Positions 650 through 9,462 of a DNA stretch of 19,870 nucleotides are shown piece after piece. The stretch is taken from the IMG/VR virus record IMGVR_UViG_2579778899_000005; one strand, 5' to 3'. This stretch comes from a virus. Lineage: Duplodnaviria; Heunggongvirae; Uroviricota; Caudoviricetes. The number at the start of each line of letters is the position of its first letter. Within the stretch, counting starts at the first letter, position 1. The notes beneath the pieces are model-generated. The model was given only the letters and a program-made list of their open reading frames with translations. It was not told the DNA's origin and did not search any database. The translations under genes were made by a program, and so were the position numbers.

Positions 650-698
650 TTGATAACGGTTGTTAACTGTTTCTGGTATCGTGGCAGCAGGAGGAAAC

Positions 699-947
699 AT
701 GCCAGTGACATTTGAAGAAGTCCAGCAACATAAAAAGCTTCATGATTTTGATGATCTGGAAACCACGACAGTAAAAAAATATCGCCGGCTGCTTTCTTCC
801 GATGCGTTATTTTTTGTGGATCATCATGATTTTCTGCGTAGCTCACTGACTGGGGAAATTTTCGCAACCAACCGTGAGCAGGTGGAAGCGATGATCGAAT
901 ATCTGTGGAAAATAAGGCGCAGAATGCGTGATCCCGTGAAACGGTAG
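699..947 (+). CDS. Hypothetical protein (82 aa)
   Basis: ATG 699 preceded by AGGAGG 689-694, stop TAG 945-947, immediately followed by a strong hairpin terminator. No recognisable family. Confidence 0.5.
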   Translation: MPVTFEEVQQHKKLHDFDDLETTTVKKYRRLLSSDALFFVDHHDFLRSSLTGEIFATNREQVEAMIEYLWKIRRRMRDPVKR

Positions 948-953
948 AATAAT

Positions 954-985
954 AATGGCCTGGTATTTTCCAGGCCATTATTTTT
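954..985. terminator. Bidirectional rho-independent terminator between convergent genes
   Basis: Perfect 10 bp inverted repeat AATGGCCTGG (954-963) / CCAGGCCATT (970-979) with a 6 nt loop, followed by TTTTT 981-985 and preceded by an A-rich run on the other strand. Lies between the stops of the + gene (947) and the - gene (984). Confidence 0.65.
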
Positions 986-1457
986 AGAAGTCGATCTCTG
1001 TATCGCGATTAAATTCATCGCTAAGGTAAAGTGCTTCGCTTGGGCATTTTCCGTTTTCCAGTAATGTTTCCCAGAAATCTTTATCGAAACATCCCTCAAG
1101 ATACAGATAGCGGCAGATGTGAAGTAAATCACTTCGTGTCCATCCGTGCATGCTGCTACTTGTTACACCATATTCACTTTCTAGTTTATAGAATGTGAGC
1201 GCCTCCCGGTCGTGCCAGGCTTTGCACAGACGATCGTATATCTTTTTAGCTTTGTTTTTAGATGTGCCGAAAAACTCTTCGTAAATTTCATGTGGGCGAG
1301 TAGGAATACTTCCGTCGCCATCCTGCAAGAAAGGATAAACATCTGCCTCCCAGGCATACACGTAAGAATCGCTGAACTCATCATAGTGTTTACCAAGGTG
1401 GAGAATCTGCAATCGTTGCTGAATGAACATTGCTTTTTTCAGTTCATTTTCTGACAT
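984..1457 (-). CDS. Hypothetical protein (157 aa), AT-rich cargo or moron-like gene
   Basis: Minus-strand ATG (complement of 1455-1457) preceded by GGAGG (complement of 1466-1470) at 8 nt spacing. Visibly more AT-rich than flanking phage genes, with its own upstream region and a terminator. No recognisable domain. Confidence 0.6.
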   Translation of the reverse strand: MSENELKKAMFIQQRLQILHLGKHYDEFSDSYVYAWEADVYPFLQDGDGSIPTRPHEIYEEFFGTSKNKAKKIYDRLCKAWHDREALTFYKLESEYGVTSSSMHGWTRSDLLHICRYLYLEGCFDKDFWETLLENGKCPSEALYLSDEFNRDTEIDF

Positions 1458-1574
1458 AGTTCGTTCCTCCTGATTGACGAGCAGAAAATGTACGGAACAG
1501 CTTATTTATTTTTTCAGGTTTTGTAAATTATTTGTTCGTGGTTGTTCCAGGTTGTTCGGTGATTCTGGCTGATG

Positions 1575-1751: not shown

Positions 1752-2897
1752 ATGAAGAAATTAATCGAACTCCGCCAGCAAAAAACCGCCCTGAAAAACC
1801 AGATGCGATCCCTGCTGGAAAAAGCCGACAGTGAAAACCGCAGCCTGAACGATGACGAAGGCAAACAGTTTGATGAACTGCGTGCAAAAGCCGATTCCCT
1901 CGACACAGAAATCTCCCGTCTTGAAGCTGTTGCGGATGAAGAACGTAACCAGCCAGGTGTTTCCGTCGAAGAGAAAATTACCAAAGACGAACTGCGCTCT
2001 TACATTCTGACCGGGGAAACCCGCAACCTGTCCGGCAGTGTCCCGGCTGATGGTGGTTATACGGTTATCCCGGAACTGAACAGAGAAATTATGCGTCAGC
2101 TTTCTGATGAATCGGTGATGCGTAAAATCTGTACCGTTAAAACCATTCACAGCAATGAATTTAAGCAACTGGTTTCTGCCGGGGGCGCGGTCGTTGAACA
2201 CGGCGAAGAAGGTGCGGCACGTAACCAGACGGCAACACCAAAACTGAATGAAGTCAGTATCCGCCTGTATCCGATCTACGCTTACCCGAAAACCACTCAG
2301 GAAATTATCGATTTTTCCGAAGTCGATATTATGGGCTGGTTATCTTCTGAAATTGGCGACACTTTCGTTGATACCGAAGAAACGGATCTGGTTTCCGGTG
2401 ATGGCGAGAAAAAAGCTAAAGGTTTCCTGGCTTTTCCGCGCACTGCGGATAACGACAAAACCCGTCCTTTCGGTACGCTCCAGACGAAAAAAGTTACTGG
2501 CAGTCTCAGCGCCGACATGCTGATTGACCTGAAATTTACGCTGCGCAATAAGTACCGCAAAAAAGCTGTATGGGTGATGAACTCAAATACAGCCGCCTCC
2601 GCACAAAAACTGAAAAATGCCACTGGTGATTACATCTGGCGCGATCGTTTACAGGCTGGTGATCCTGATTCTCTGCTGGGGCTTCCGGTTGAATATCTGG
2701 AATTTATGCCGGACGGTGTGATTGCAGTAGGTGACTTTAAGCGCGGTTATTTCATCGTTGACCATGAAACCGGTACGCGTACCCGTCCGGATTTCAGCGA
2801 ACCTGGATTCATTAACATCTATACCCAGAAATATCTGGGCGGTGGTGTGGTGGATTCGAACGCCATCAAGATTCTGGAAATTCAGGCTGGCAAGTAA
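1752..2897 (+). CDS. Major capsid protein, HK97 family, with N-terminal coiled-coil delta (scaffold) domain
   Basis: 381 aa. N-terminal ~100 aa is a charged coiled coil. C-terminal part carries HK97-fold motifs (KGFLAFP, GDFKRGYFIVD, GGGVVDSNAIKILEI). No separate scaffold gene. Confidence 0.9.
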   Translation: MKKLIELRQQKTALKNQMRSLLEKADSENRSLNDDEGKQFDELRAKADSLDTEISRLEAVADEERNQPGVSVEEKITKDELRSYILTGETRNLSGSVPADGGYTVIPELNREIMRQLSDESVMRKICTVKTIHSNEFKQLVSAGGAVVEHGEEGAARNQTATPKLNEVSIRLYPIYAYPKTTQEIIDFSEVDIMGWLSSEIGDTFVDTEETDLVSGDGEKKAKGFLAFPRTADNDKTRPFGTLQTKKVTGSLSADMLIDLKFTLRNKYRKKAVWVMNSNTAASAQKLKNATGDYIWRDRLQAGDPDSLLGLPVEYLEFMPDGVIAVGDFKRGYFIVDHETGTRTRPDFSEPGFINIYTQKYLGGGVVDSNAIKILEIQAGK

Positions 2898-2902
2898 TGA
2901 GC

Positions 2903-2927
2903 AAAGGGGGCTTCGGCCTCCTTTTTC
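2903..2927 (+). terminator. Rho-independent terminator or attenuator directly after the capsid gene
   Basis: GGGGGC (2906-2911), TTCG tetraloop, GCCTCC (2916-2921; one G-U pair), then TTTTT 2922-2926. Begins 6 nt after the capsid stop. Confidence 0.55.
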
Positions 2928-2946
2928 AGCTTTATGGAGTACACCG

Positions 2947-3507
2947 ATGAAAAATACCGATTTTGAAATCCGTACATCTGAACTGACCGCCTGCGATAAA
3001 AAACTGGTGGGTTATGCCGTTCGCTGGAACAGCCTTTCAGAAATTATCTGGGACGAATTCCGCGAACAGTTCACGCCGGGGGCTTTTGCTGACTATCTGG
3101 CGGCGGGTAATGATGTGCGCTGCCTGTATGAGCATGACTATACCCGACTGCTGGGGCGCACCAAATCCGGAACACTGGTACTGACTGAGGACAACACCGG
3201 GCTACGTTTTGAACTGACACCGCCTGATACCCAGCTTGGAAAAGATGTGCTTACGCTGGTGGAGCGTGGCGACATTACAGGAATGAGCTTTGGCTTTCGC
3301 GCATTATGCGAAGAGTGGAATATCGCGCAAAAACCGTATCTGCGCACTGTTACCGCCGCAGAACTTCGTGAAATCACGATAACGTCAATGCCTGCTTATC
3401 CCGAATCTGGCGTGGAGATTGCCCATCGTTCGTTGTTTGCACAGCACCCTGAATTACGCCCGGCAGGAAATAATCGTCATCGCTGGGCTGAACTGGCGGG
3501 GTTGTGA
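2947..3507 (+). CDS. Prohead maturation protease, HK97 (S78) family
   Basis: ATG 2947 with GGAG 2936-2939 at 7 nt spacing. Motifs GYAVRWN and GMSFGF are typical of HK97-family prohead proteases. Stop TGA 3505-3507. Confidence 0.85.
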   Translation: MKNTDFEIRTSELTACDKKLVGYAVRWNSLSEIIWDEFREQFTPGAFADYLAAGNDVRCLYEHDYTRLLGRTKSGTLVLTEDNTGLRFELTPPDTQLGKDVLTLVERGDITGMSFGFRALCEEWNIAQKPYLRTVTAAELREITITSMPAYPESGVEIAHRSLFAQHPELRPAGNNRHRWAELAGL

Positions 3508-3508
3508 T

Positions 3509-4723
3509 ATGTGGTGGCCTTTTAGTCGTAAAAAAAGCGATCTGCGTAACCTGTCCATTGATGATTTTCTGGCGCTGTCCGGCGTACCGAATACCGGATC
3601 CGGAGAATATGTTTCTGCCGGGACGGCTGAATCATTGCCTGCTGTGATGAACGCGGTTTCTGTCATCGCTGAGGCGGTGGCCACGATGCCGTGTTATCTG
3701 TATCTGGTACGCAATGACAAGGGCAGGGAGGCGCGGGAATGGCTGGACAGTCACCCGGTCGATATTCTGCTGAATGAGCAGCCTAATTCGTGCCAGACAC
3801 CTTACCAGTTTAAACGCACAATGATGCGTCACTGCCTGCTGAACGGTAACGCCTATGCGGTTATTGAGTGGGGGCGGGACGGTCAGCCAAAATCACTTCA
3901 TCCTTATGCGCCGGGGTGTGTTGTACCGGAACGCACTGGCGCACACAAATACCGCTATACCATCACCGAACCCTATACAGGAACGGTGCGCACGTATTTA
4001 CAGGAAGAAGTTCTGCATCTCCGCTATGCCTCGGATGATGGCTTTCTGGGGCGCTCCCCCGTCACGATTTGCCGTGAGGCGCTGGGGCTTGGCCTTGCTC
4101 AACAGCGTCACGGAGCCAGCATTATGAAAGATGGCATGATGGCGGCAGGGATTATCACGTCAGGCGAATGGCTGGACGGCGTAAAAGGTAAACAGGCATT
4201 AGACGCCCTGGAACGCTACAAGGGGGCGAAAAATGCCGGAAAAACGCCAATCCTTGAAGGGGGCATGGATTACAAGCAACTGGGGATGAGTAACCAGGAT
4301 GCGGAATGGCTGGCCTCCCGTCGCTTCTCCATTGAAGACATCGCCCGGATGTTCAACGTGTCGCCTATTTTTCTGCAGGAATACAGCAACAGCACCTACA
4401 GCAATTTCAGTGAGGCAAGCCGCGCGTTTCTGACCATGACAATGCGTCCGTGGCTGGCGAACTTCGAACAGCAAATCAAGGCCGCTTTGCTGGTGGCTTC
4501 TCCCGTACCTGGTACCCGTTATCTGGTTGAGTTTGATTCAGCCGATTTATTACGCGCCACCCCTACCGAACGTTACGCCACGTATGAGAAAGGGATTAAG
4601 AACGGGATCATGAATCCGAACGAAGCCCGCGAACGTGAGGGGATGCCGCCGCGTGAAGGTGGCGACGAATTCAGCCAGGCATGGAAGCAGACGGTGGAAA
4701 TTAAAGGTGAAAAAGATGAGTGA
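3509..4723 (+). CDS. Portal protein, HK97 family
   Basis: ATG 3509 lies 1 nt after the protease stop. 404 aa protein with the same overall pattern as the second portal in this window (NGNAYAV..., MDYKQLGMSNQDAEWLASRRFSIEDIARMFNVSP). Stop TGA 4721-4723. Confidence 0.9.
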   Translation: MWWPFSRKKSDLRNLSIDDFLALSGVPNTGSGEYVSAGTAESLPAVMNAVSVIAEAVATMPCYLYLVRNDKGREAREWLDSHPVDILLNEQPNSCQTPYQFKRTMMRHCLLNGNAYAVIEWGRDGQPKSLHPYAPGCVVPERTGAHKYRYTITEPYTGTVRTYLQEEVLHLRYASDDGFLGRSPVTICREALGLGLAQQRHGASIMKDGMMAAGIITSGEWLDGVKGKQALDALERYKGAKNAGKTPILEGGMDYKQLGMSNQDAEWLASRRFSIEDIARMFNVSPIFLQEYSNSTYSNFSEASRAFLTMTMRPWLANFEQQIKAALLVASPVPGTRYLVEFDSADLLRATPTERYATYEKGIKNGIMNPNEAREREGMPPREGGDEFSQAWKQTVEIKGEKDE

Positions 4724-5015
4724 AGAAAAAATTACACCTGATGAAGTCAGGGCACATCTTCGCCTTGATGACTTTTCCGGAGAAGGCGAACTTCTGAAAA
4801 TGTATACCGATGCGGCGCTGGAAGCCTGCCAGAAGCACATCGGGAAACGTTTTGAAGACGGTCTGGAATTTACCCCGGCAATGCGTGTTGGTTGCCTGAT
4901 GTACATCGCTTTTCTGTATGAGAACAGGGAAGCGGTTTCACCTGTGGAGCAGTCGGAACTGCCTATGGCTATTTCTGCGCTCTGGTCAGTTTATCGTGAT
5001 GTGGGGGTGTATTGA
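4716..5015 (+). CDS. Head-tail connector, gp6-like
   Basis: ATG 4716 overlaps the portal stop (ATGAGTGA) with AGGTG upstream. 99 aa, similar in size and pattern to the gp6-like protein at 12997-13302. Confidence 0.7.
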   Translation: MSEEKITPDEVRAHLRLDDFSGEGELLKMYTDAALEACQKHIGKRFEDGLEFTPAMRVGCLMYIAFLYENREAVSPVEQSELPMAISALWSVYRDVGVY

Positions 5016-5455
5016 TGCCGTGGCAACCATTAAGGCGTTGTACTGAACCGGGCTGTAATAAGCGTGTGAAGTCAGGCAAGTGTGAAGAGCACAGGCGGGC
5101 TGCATGGCGTGCAGAGGATGCCAGACGGGGACACCGCCGCGCGCGTGGGTATTCCCGACAGTGGGACAAATACCGCGCCCTGTATCTGAGCAAAAACCCG
5201 TTATGCGTGCGTTGTCTGGCTAAAGGTATTTATACGCCAGCTCTTGTGGTGGATCACATCATTCCCATCAATGGCGGCGGTGATGTTCTCTTCTGGCCTG
5301 AGTGGAATCACCAGGCATTGTGCCAGACGTGCCACAACCGTAAGACGACACGGGAAGATCCAGCCACGAAAGCGAACCGTAAGGCGGGCATGTATCGCGA
5401 GCAGGAAGAACGGGCGGCACATCGTAACGACTGGATGTATGGCGATGATGACTGA
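5015..5455 (+). CDS. HNH endonuclease (terminase-associated)
   Basis: ATG 5015 overlaps the upstream stop (TGATG). Cys-rich N-terminus and HNH core (VDHIIPINGGGD...WNHQALCQTCHNRKT). HNH genes adjacent to terS/terL are typical of cos-type HK97-like packaging modules. Confidence 0.85.
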   Translation: MPWQPLRRCTEPGCNKRVKSGKCEEHRRAAWRAEDARRGHRRARGYSRQWDKYRALYLSKNPLCVRCLAKGIYTPALVVDHIIPINGGGDVLFWPEWNHQALCQTCHNRKTTREDPATKANRKAGMYREQEERAAHRNDWMYGDDD

Positions 5456-5624
5456 ACAGGAGCAAAACAGGCTGATACGTGGACTGATAAGGCAGCGTGA
5501 CACATGGAAGGCACAGGAGACAGGGCACAAAGCCAACAGGACAGGGCGCACAGAACGCACCACAGCGAAGCGATTAACCGACCGTGACCGCGAGGTCATG
5601 GAATGTTTTCGCAATCGCTGGTGA
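5439..5624 (+). CDS. Possible small basic protein (61 aa); coding status uncertain
   Basis: ATG 5439 overlaps the HNH 3' end in another frame, stop TGA 5622-5624. Arg/Lys-rich, no clear RBS. May be non-coding sequence within a packaging-site region. Confidence 0.25.
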   Translation: MAMMTEQEQNRLIRGLIRQRDTWKAQETGHKANRTGRTERTTAKRLTDRDREVMECFRNRW

Positions 5625-8035: not shown

Positions 8036-8041
8036 CTTGTG

Positions 8042-8090
8042 GTGACATACCGTGACGGAGAGTGACAACCAGTGACACACAGTGACAAAA
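8042..8090 (+). repeat. Five tandem GTGAC(A) motifs at exact 10 bp periodicity
   Basis: GTGAC at 8042, 8052, 8062, 8072 and 8082 (GGTGACATAC CGTGACGGAG AGTGACAACC AGTGACACAC AGTGACAAAA). One copy per helical turn, starting 7 nt after the stop of ORF 7742-8035. Confidence 0.75.
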
Positions 8091-8108
8091 AGACGGTATT
8101 TAAATAGA

Positions 8109-8137
8109 GTGGGTGTTTAATACCCCCCGTTTTTTTT
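8109..8137 (+). terminator. Possible weak terminator (short imperfect stem plus T8 run)
   Basis: GGGT (8111-8114) can pair with ACCC (8122-8125), followed by C-rich bases and TTTTTTTT 8130-8137. The stem is weak, so this is tentative. Confidence 0.35.
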
Positions 8138-8289
8138 CGTGTGGTGCATGGTCAAAATGACCACGGAGAAGATACGCACCGAAGCAGAACAATTACCGTA
8201 GGTTAAAGCGACAGTATTCACACCAGCAACCTGATTATCAATTTTCAGCCGTTCGGTGGCATCACTGGCCCCATTTTCCTGATGGGGTT

Positions 8290-8442
8290 GCGGGTTATTT
8301 GGGGGGTATTTGCGGGTTATTTTGAATGTCTCGCGGGTTACGCTTTGGCTAATATTCAAACGCATCATTTTTTAACGCATTGATATTAAAGAATAAAAAA
8401 TACTTAGCAAGCGAAGATAACCCGCTAACCCGCATAACCCGC
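8290..8442. repeat. Iteron-like repeat clusters: 3x GCGGGTTA(T) at ~22 bp spacing, an AT-rich core, then 3x inverted TAACCCGC in tandem
   Basis: Direct copies start at 8290, 8312 and 8333, with a degenerate GGGGGTATTT copy at 8301-8311. Reverse-complement copies at 8418-8425, 8426-8433 and 8435-8442. They flank a ~75 bp AT-rich segment (8343-8417). A 12 bp GTATATATATAC palindrome follows at 8451-8462. Confidence 0.75.
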
Positions 8443-8629
8443 ACTGTTTTGTATATATATACGAAAAATTGCATTCAGGGGGGTGATCGAAATTTCTACT
8501 GCCTCTTATCTCTTTGAGTGCTCACCTCGTCAGATTGTTACACACAAGAAATAAAAAATGCTTCGCGATGGTAGGTCGAATCACTGTATCAAAAAACGGT
8601 GTGTATCAGCATTAAAACAATACAGATAC

Positions 8630-8650
8630 GTGTATTGCGCTGTGTATTGC
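8630..8650 (+). repeat. Tandem GTGTATTGC repeat (2 copies, 12 bp apart)
   Basis: Copies at 8630-8638 and 8642-8650, with a related GTGTATC at 8601-8607, in AT-rich non-coding DNA. Confidence 0.6.
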
Positions 8651-8736
8651 TTGATGATTTATAAAGACTGTTTTTTCATGTTAAACGATTGATATACAGG
8701 TGATTTTAAAAAACTTGAAATATTCTTACCAAACAC

Positions 8737-9462
8737 ATGAATGTGTGGGTAACAGCAGAGTCTGCCTGGATGGACATGATTAAGTGGGAGAAGTGCGAAT
8801 ACATTGCCCCACGACATGAGCTGAAAACGTATCCCATGTGGGTCGGCGTTGACCTTGCTCATAAGATTGATATCTGTGCGGCGGCAAAACTCTGGCGAAC
8901 GGATAACGGGCATGTTCATGCCGATTTTAAATTCTGGCTTCCGGAAGGACGGCTGGAACGATGCTCGCGGCAGCAGGCAGAACTTTACCGGAAGTGGGCG
9001 GAGATGGATAAGCTGATTCTGACGGATGGTGATGTTATCGATCATGCTCAGATAAAAAGTGACTTACTGGAATGGATTGGTGGTGAAAACCTCAGGGAAC
9101 TGGGATTTGACCCGTGGAGCGCGATGCAGTTCAGCCTGGCACTGGCTGAAGAAGGGATACCGCTGGTGGAGGTTCCGCAGACGGTTCGCAATCTGTCAGA
9201 GGCCATGAAGGAAACGGAATCACTGGTCTATGCCGGGCGTTTCCATCACAGCAATCATCCGGTCATGAACTGGATGATGTCTAACGTTACGGTAAAACCG
9301 GACAAAAACGACAATATCTTCCCGAATAAATCCACGCTGGAAGCCAAAATCGACGGCCCTGTTGCGATGTTTACAGCAATGAGCCGGATGCTGGTCAATG
9401 GTGGTGAACCGGAGCTGGATCTGTCTGAACATCTGGTCAGCGTGGGCATCCGCTCGCTTTAA
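8737..9462 (+). pseudogene. Terminase large subunit remnant: C-terminal nuclease half only, N-terminal ATPase domain absent
   Basis: The 241 aa ORF aligns by eye with the C-terminal ~240 aa of the intact TerL at 6084-7745 (NVWVTAESAWM vs NIWCQGATPWM; VGVDLAHKID vs AGLDLSSTSD). An in-frame stop at 8716-8718 and a lack of SD upstream indicate truncation near 8720-8740. Confidence 0.7.

Follow-up and report, generated by a model that had tools for sequence, protein, structure and literature searches.

Classical prophage morons are inserted between core genes and form transcription units of their own, each with a flanking promoter and terminator. Cargo at comparable positions is documented in phage satellites. 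Capsid-forming PICIs (cf-PICIs) were defined with EcCIEDL933 as the prototype that transfers (10.1101/2022.09.08.507074), and He et al. (bioRxiv 10.1101/2025.02.11.637232) call the variable region that precedes their packaging operon 'expected to encode immune systems'. The same group demonstrated immunity genes in PICI hotspots and described TaiEcA, the product of orf63 of phi80, a reverse-strand gene upstream of the phi80 packaging module that encodes immunity, is expressed in the lysogenic state and binds a phage structural protein (PMC11364771). Among single-gene abortive-infection systems, the lactococcal Kamadhenu has YfbU as its sole domain (PMC11381338), and the chromosomal yfbU gene of Escherichia coli has been implicated in cell death (PMC2646832, as cited in PMC11381338 and PMC13064643).

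We analysed here a stretch of 19,870 nucleotides (hereafter the window) that matches E. coli chromosomes at 99.9% identity. In the best-matching RefSeq record, the island starts with an integrase, two HTH regulators, a Bro-N protein, an Icd-like protein and a DUF927 primase, continues with SSB, PerC, an 82-aa hypothetical protein and a 157-aa protein (hereafter ORF157), and ends with the major capsid protein, the protease, the portal, the connector, HNH, TerS and TerL. Pfam and PHROG searches confirmed the SSB (8-355), PerC (371-649) and capsid assignments, and no tail or lysis gene is annotated in the island at this 99.9%-identical locus. By its annotated gene content, the element that carries ORF157 is a cf-PICI, in agreement with the first-pass annotation, which had raised the idea of a satellite. 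The product of 371-649 belongs to the PerC family of transcriptional activators (Pfam E=9e-36), whose homologues on E. coli PICIs are linked to regulation of the LEE pathogenicity island.

The whole island sits inside terL of a P27/HK97-like prophage and splits it into an N- and a C-terminal pseudogene. The N-terminal half lies to the left of the integrase; the C-terminal fragment, which is limited to the nuclease half, is encoded by window 8737-9459, and 8036-9462 spans the right end of the island together with this fragment. The same insertion was observed in two genomes whose islands have differing replication modules, with terL halves at 2860-3888 and 19817-20560 in L001 and at 1849-2877 and 18272-19015 in L038, and terL looks like the regular attachment site of the integrase. 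Insertion at this site would block packaging by the resident prophage until the island is excised. The GC content falls to the minimum of the window (about 37%, 8036-8736) in the interval that separates the last island gene from the TerL fragment of the prophage. Two unannotated minus-strand ORFs in this part of the window (8117-8368, 83 aa; 8659-9045, 128 aa) have no Pfam or PHROG match. The AT-rich stretch 8036-8736 is either a second variable region of the cf-PICI or the attachment-site junction.

Our comparison of sister islands firmly supports the view that ORF157 is an optional cargo gene (a moron) occupying a variable slot that immediately precedes the packaging operon of the cf-PICI (Table 1). 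In an island with an empty slot (L020), window 683-983 and 1509-1800 align contiguously by BLAST; relative to this island, 984-1508 is therefore a sharp-ended insertion, with breakpoints at 983/984 and 1508/1509 and both ends falling in a T-run. The slot is also empty in an EcCIEDL933-like island of serotype O157:H7 (L021). It is filled by an unrelated 168-aa protein with a hydrophobic Gly/Ala-rich C-terminal tail in L002 (3084-3590, minus strand) and by a 414-aa DUF3775 protein in L023 (1154-2398, minus strand). At least four allelic states of the slot could be shown, and every occupant seen lies on the minus strand. Collinear islands thus differ at a fixed site by presence, absence or replacement of the cargo.

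Table 1. Coordinates of the cargo slot and of its neighbouring features in the window.
Feature	Position	Strand	Remarks
82-aa core gene	699-947	plus	PHROG 1957, function unknown; convergent with ORF157; outside the cassette
Hairpin, putative terminator	951-982	both	between 699-947 (plus) and ORF157 (minus); island-core element
Cargo cassette, 525 bp	984-1508	minus	ORF, RBS and 51 bp upstream; missing in empty-slot sister islands
ORF157 CDS	984-1457	minus	ATG start; TAA stop at 986-984; 157 aa
Shine-Dalgarno AGGAGG	1466-1471	minus	8 nt 5′ of the ORF157 ATG; direct sequence reading
Candidate -10 TAAGCT	1499-1504	minus	within the cassette; predicted
Conserved 49-nt core element	1509-1557		borders the slot on the right; stands between the cargo and the promoter region of the capsid operon
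Candidate -35 TTTACA	1522-1527	minus	from the island core; predicted
cf-PICI major capsid gene	1752-2897	plus	first gene of the packaging operon; divergent from ORF157; Pfam, PHROG, RefSeq

Of the 5,426 complete E. coli genomes, 132 have both flanks of the slot. Among 17 of these carriers, sampled at even spacing, nine slots were empty, seven held the 168-aa gene and a single one held ORF157, and the ORF157 cassette is present in nine of the 5,426 genomes overall. The 168-aa gene is far commoner in this slot than ORF157 in E. coli. Seven of the nine cassette carriers belong to the capsid lineage of the window, and the other two switch to an EDL933-type capsid module right after position 1557; a 98% identical copy of ORF157 resides in an island with such a capsid module. 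An identical protein (WP_001293446.1) is encoded by islands with either a DUF927 primase or a RepA helicase. The cassette is thus shuffled among island backbones via its conserved flanks, and the islands compared with the window for these copies (L001, L038 and L022) show a mosaic exchange of segments at the borders of the slot. Homologues in cf-PICIs of Edwardsiella and Serratia occupy the same slot in the same orientation. The first-pass annotation had taken the gene for a horizontally acquired moron, a view that is borne out by the 525-bp insertion relative to the empty-slot island, by the replacement of the slot content with unrelated genes and by the small number of genomes that carry the cassette.

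This slot resembles the variable region of He et al. (10.1101/2025.02.11.637232) in the type of element, in its position directly before the capsid gene and in the presence/absence and replacement polymorphism between near-identical islands. That paper only expects immune systems in this region, and neither ORF157 nor its family is named or tested in it. The suggestion, made from the letters alone, that defence-type cargo is carried at such positions accords with this literature, in which the region is called variable and immune genes are anticipated. None of the three slot occupants seen here (ORF157, the 168-aa protein and the 414-aa DUF3775 protein) matches a PADLOC model; for ORF157, PADLOC-DB v2.0.0 (5,027 defence models) gave nothing at E up to 1. 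The kind of locus is known and expected, namely accessory cargo in a satellite hotspot, and the gene family itself is uncharacterised.

ORF157 has 19 homologues of 156-158 aa in other Enterobacterales, at 52-63% identity and with a mean column identity of 77%. Such same-length homologues at this level of divergence indicate a real coding gene. The possibility that ORF157 is a spurious or decaying ORF without function could be entertained from its rarity in E. coli (nine genomes) and the absence of a known domain. However, its constant length and 52-63% identity across genera, a family of 348 representatives, a confident AF2 model, a strong ribosome-binding site and intact copies in all nine genomes speak against this reading, which we consider effectively refuted by the conservation of the sequence.

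In several respects ORF157 resembles a classical prophage moron: it is opposite to the surrounding operons, AT-rich, equipped with a strong RBS, bounded by a terminator and polymorphic in presence and absence. Its GC content is 42.2%, as compared with 51.7% for the window, and lies at the 3rd percentile among segments of the same length (474 nt). The first-pass annotation was right to describe the gene as more AT-rich, but the adjoining core gene 699-947 is nearly as low (43.8%), and low GC is not peculiar to the cassette. The strong GGAGG motif that it had noticed is part of the AGGAGG listed in Table 1 (1471-1466 on the reading strand). Its statement that ORF157 is the sole minus-strand gene of the left block needs a narrower scope: in the annotation of the matching RefSeq record this is true from ssb to the end of the island, but two further small minus-strand genes lie 5′ of the window, in the regulatory region of the island. 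ORF157 departs from the classical moron in that its terminator and putative -35 element are supplied by the host island and not by the cassette.

The left border of the slot is a hairpin that abuts the stop codon of ORF157. Its stem (951-963/970-982) is a perfect 13 bp closed by a 6-nt loop (dG ~-21 kcal/mol), and folding z-scores of -4.7 (plus strand) and -6.1 (minus strand), with none of 200 shuffles as stable, are consistent with a terminator, which a simple consensus terminator scan did not call. The U-tract that follows is clean on the plus strand (UUUUU) and interrupted on the minus strand (AUUCUACC). Hence, of the perfect bidirectional terminator announced earlier, the perfect stem and the stability on both strands hold, but the minus-strand U-tract is broken. 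The hairpin also occurs in islands with an empty slot, where it ends the upstream gene; it therefore belongs to the 82-aa core gene, as its terminator, and lies outside the cassette. The first-pass annotation had credited ORF157 with a terminator of its own, which is incorrect, the hairpin being a core element common to both convergent genes and retained in empty-slot islands. The 82-aa gene itself adjoins empty slots as well as slots with other cargo.

The right border is a 49-nt element with three TTGTTC repeats at an exact 10-nt spacing (1532, 1542 and 1552). It has matches in 484 of the 5,426 E. coli genomes, whatever the slot content, and its invariant core (TTTTGTAAATTATTTGTTC; GAACAAATAATTTACAAAA on the minus strand) is common to islands of three genera (E. 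coli, Edwardsiella and Serratia). The element lies 20-50 nt upstream of a promoter-like site of the capsid operon (1575-1602), where it could serve as an activator site or exert control in both directions. The capsid leader (1603-1751) is GC-rich, contains GCGMGATGCCGGG twice and has a modest predicted fold stability (z -2.2) and no Rfam match; a search of 900-1800 against Rfam gave only a chance match.

The sequence of this border also suggests how ORF157 could be expressed. In four of four cassettes of the ORF157 family (two from E. coli, one each from Edwardsiella and Serratia), a TAnnnT hexamer is found exactly 17 nt past the TTTACA of the island core; the hexamers read TAAGCT, TAAACT, TATGGT and TATTGT, and the sequence around them is otherwise unalignable. 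Empty slots have no TAnnnT hexamer at that spacing. We infer a composite sigma-70 promoter, with a -35 element contributed by the island core, a -10 element brought by the cassette and a leader of ~36 nt from a predicted start near 1493. The predicted -10 of the window matches the consensus at only three of six positions, and a consensus promoter scan did not call the site. As ORF157 is directed away from the late operon and stops at the hairpin, it is probably expressed independently, plausibly while the island is integrated. A 16-nt inverted repeat around the RBS and the ATG (1438-1453/1482-1497) was considered as a translational hairpin and rejected: its z-score (-0.43) is no better than that of shuffles, and the repeat is not conserved in Edwardsiella or Serratia.

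The divergent arrangement invites the idea that ORF157 regulates the capsid and packaging operon of the cf-PICI by winged-helix DNA binding, for ORF157 and the capsid gene are arranged head-to-head on either side of 294 bp that hold the conserved repeat element and the promoter-like site, and the structural model of ORF157 has a weak winged-helix similarity. Nevertheless, about half of the sister islands have an empty slot, among them those of the type of EcCIEDL933, the prototype that transfers without ORF157 (10.1101/2022.09.08.507074), unrelated proteins replace ORF157 in the slot, members of its family occur outside satellites and the protein is acidic. We regard such a regulatory role as very unlikely.

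ORF157 is predicted to be a soluble protein of 18.7 kDa with a pI of 4.9 and no hydrophobic segment. Its AF2 model is confident (pLDDT 90.1) and all-alpha, with nine helices. Searches for domains and families returned no Pfam or NCBIfam match and no significant PHROG match, sequence-profile searches of the PDB gave nothing below E=0.03, and Foldseek found no neighbour of the model at E ≤0.001 in the PDB or BFVD. The model has a possible winged-helix-like sub-domain, its structural similarity to winged helices being weak. By tblastn, ORF157 had a single match (E=3) among 50,697 phage records, and two further query proteins (P0176 and P0143) had no usable match in this phage collection. The absence of a recognisable domain, claimed in the first-pass annotation, therefore stands across Pfam, NCBIfam, PADLOC and PHROG, and the remote-homology and structure-prediction checks that it had proposed led to a confident all-alpha model without a significant profile match or a convincing structural neighbour.

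HEPN-domain RNases are common small all-alpha effectors of abortive-infection and toxin-antitoxin systems. ORF157 does contain an R108-x4-H113 motif; however, position 113 is H, N, D, K or R in close homologues, and we rejected the HEPN assignment because H113 is not conserved. Nothing in the sequence points to catalysis, and our best guess is that the protein is non-catalytic. Its small size, acidic all-alpha nature, lack of a catalytic motif and winged-helix-like sub-domain lead us to propose that it most likely binds another protein rather than catalyses a reaction.

An exhaustive HMMER search gathered 348 representatives of the family, 234 of them below 1e-10. The typical member is a solitary, acidic protein of ~150 aa, encoded on satellites, phages or plasmids or in defence and toxin-antitoxin neighbourhoods; the family core has a median pI of 5.0 and a net charge of -8. 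The best-conserved positions are mostly aromatic or hydrophobic, together with R15, H56, E93, R108, R116, D125 and E141. ORF157 can thus be placed as the enterobacterial branch of a large unnamed family with a confident but unmatched fold.

The genomic contexts of the relatives are varied. A marine temperate phage carries one as a reverse-strand moron between the Nin/RusA and the lysis/terminase regions, another has an Abi protein and DISARM as neighbours in a defence island of a plasmid, and others are found beside RelE/HTH, RelB/YafQ or RelE/ParE pairs on chromosomes, conjugative elements and a plasmid. One relative is isolated after ruvB and several stand among housekeeping genes. The 35-kb Pleionea sp. 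plasmid NZ_CP133550 (L036) has two family matches in its maintenance region, one at 5001-5456, near RelE/ParE toxin and HTH genes. No conserved partner gene was found across the contexts examined, in which members are mostly solitary; the upstream neighbours of distant relatives were considered as partners and turned out to be unrelated genes, such as one for a lipoprotein.

The company kept by these relatives, together with the slot, makes a role in conflict between mobile elements the most likely function of ORF157. More specifically, the gene may protect the lysogen or the satellite against competing phages, by interference or by an abortive-infection type of response. This is the reading that we favour, at somewhat less than an even chance. 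Guilt by association is a weak argument when a gene stands alone, several relatives have housekeeping surroundings, and the lack of PADLOC matches for all slot occupants also speaks against it. Moreover, a neutralising role would explain the antitoxin-type fusions and the acidic charge of the family no less well than a role as defence effector.

Type II antitoxins bind DNA through RHH, Phd/YefM or MazE modules. In the alignment of the ORF157 family, about 25 of 123 members carry an N-terminal extension of 40-55 aa, which is mostly RHH, with Phd/YefM in four and MazE/AbrB in two. About one-fifth of the family thus shares the N-terminal domain repertoire of these antitoxins, and the shared domain is acidic. 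The likeness has its limits: ORF157 itself begins directly at the family core and has no DNA-binding domain, the family domain is a folded globular unit of ~150 aa instead of a short disordered tail, and no adjacent co-transcribed cognate toxin exists, ORF157 being the sole minus-strand gene in the slot.

A close second to the protective role is that ORF157 acts in counter-defence, as an antitoxin-like neutraliser that binds a toxin or abortive-infection effector of the host or of a rival element (for instance of the YfbU type) and would let the satellite or its helper complete the lytic cycle. Such a function is possible rather than probable. It would account for the three classic antitoxin modules of the relatives and for the acidic family core, as antitoxins are typically acidic; moreover, in one phage a member precedes a YfbU gene by 21 nt, the order typical of an antitoxin and its toxin, and E. 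coli has a chromosomal yfbU implicated in cell death. On the other hand, most members have no conserved partner toxin beside them, the YfbU adjacency is a single case, and the apparent expression from the integrated island, on the strand opposite to the late operon, looks like that of a lysogenic-state gene. In addition, YfbU too is fused to the same RHH, which argues that this RHH marks autoregulated solitary genes and not antitoxins specifically.

The same fusions raise a third option, namely a single-chain toxin-antitoxin-like module for addiction or stabilisation, whose loss would harm the cell and which would thereby retain the island. ORF157 is solitary, mobile and patchily distributed, its fused relatives combine an autoregulatory DNA-binding domain with a globular domain in the manner of RHH-YfbU, and classical toxin-antitoxin pairs adjoin family members on plasmids and conjugative elements. 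This option appears improbable for ORF157, which lacks a DNA-binding domain, a membrane segment and any nuclease or HEPN-type motif and which is acidic, whereas most toxins are basic.

The connection with YfbU emerged from a profile of the RHH-fused members, which retrieves ~45 proteins whose near-identical RHH is joined to YfbU (PF03887) in place of the ORF157-family domain. The two domains are not the same: the ORF157 family has no detectable homology to PF03887, and ORF157 matches neither the PF03887 profile nor the fold of PDB 1WPB. What they share is their format, as both are solitary all-helical proteins of ~150-180 aa, fused in some lineages to the same RHH and found as isolated insertions among housekeeping genes. 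To our knowledge, cell death and abortive infection are the only phenotypes known for YfbU. The RHH-YfbU proteins (P0253-P0298) are ~232 aa long; one of them (L032, 4001-4699) is inserted alone between trpS and murJ, with a Phd/ParE pair nearby. These fusions have the appearance of single-gene modules that regulate themselves, and they may be relevant to the mechanism of Kamadhenu and YfbU. In the tail-spike region of a metagenomic phage (L007, 5001-6028), a family member is followed 21 nt on by a YfbU gene, and the two may form a two-gene cassette.

The other close analogue of ORF157 is Tai. Both are single small genes without a known domain, located on the reverse strand upstream of a packaging module or in a mid-island hotspot of a PICI. 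They are nevertheless distinct: aligning the family profile with TaiEcA by hhalign gave a probability of 0.1, TaiEcA is 204 aa long as compared with 157 aa, and ORF157 is not adjoined by an overlapping counter-gene comparable to atiEcA. We considered whether the convergent 82-aa gene could play this part in a Tai/Ati-like pair and dismissed the idea, as the gene belongs to the island core.

Taken together, ORF157 is a reasonable but unproven candidate for a conflict gene. In the protective role that we favour, it would be transcribed alone from the composite promoter while the island is integrated and the late operon silent, and it would yield a small acidic all-alpha protein that acts by binding another protein. 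That this action would serve conflict between elements is suggested by the slot and by the neighbours of the relatives. A broader proposal, which we advance tentatively and expect is more probably wrong than right, is that the family represents a new single-protein conflict module, without structural precedent, whose function is linked to that of YfbU: the two would be exchangeable as effector or sensor on one autoregulatory RHH chassis, or the family would neutralise YfbU. The module would be plugged into an island socket made of half a promoter and a terminator. If so, the stand-alone form in the cf-PICIs of Enterobacterales would protect the lysogen against competing phages or disarm a YfbU-type death pathway of the host during satellite induction, and the island core would be a plug-in expression socket for cargo.

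Phage satellites are proving rich in immune genes, and the contents of the hotspot before the packaging operon are largely uncharacterised. The slot is now defined to the base pair, and one of its occupants can be placed in a large unnamed family that is linked to YfbU by domain architecture. Should ORF157 have no anti-phage or anti-defence activity, it would be one more hypothetical moron; should it have either, it would represent a new single-gene system and offer a handle on the biology of YfbU.
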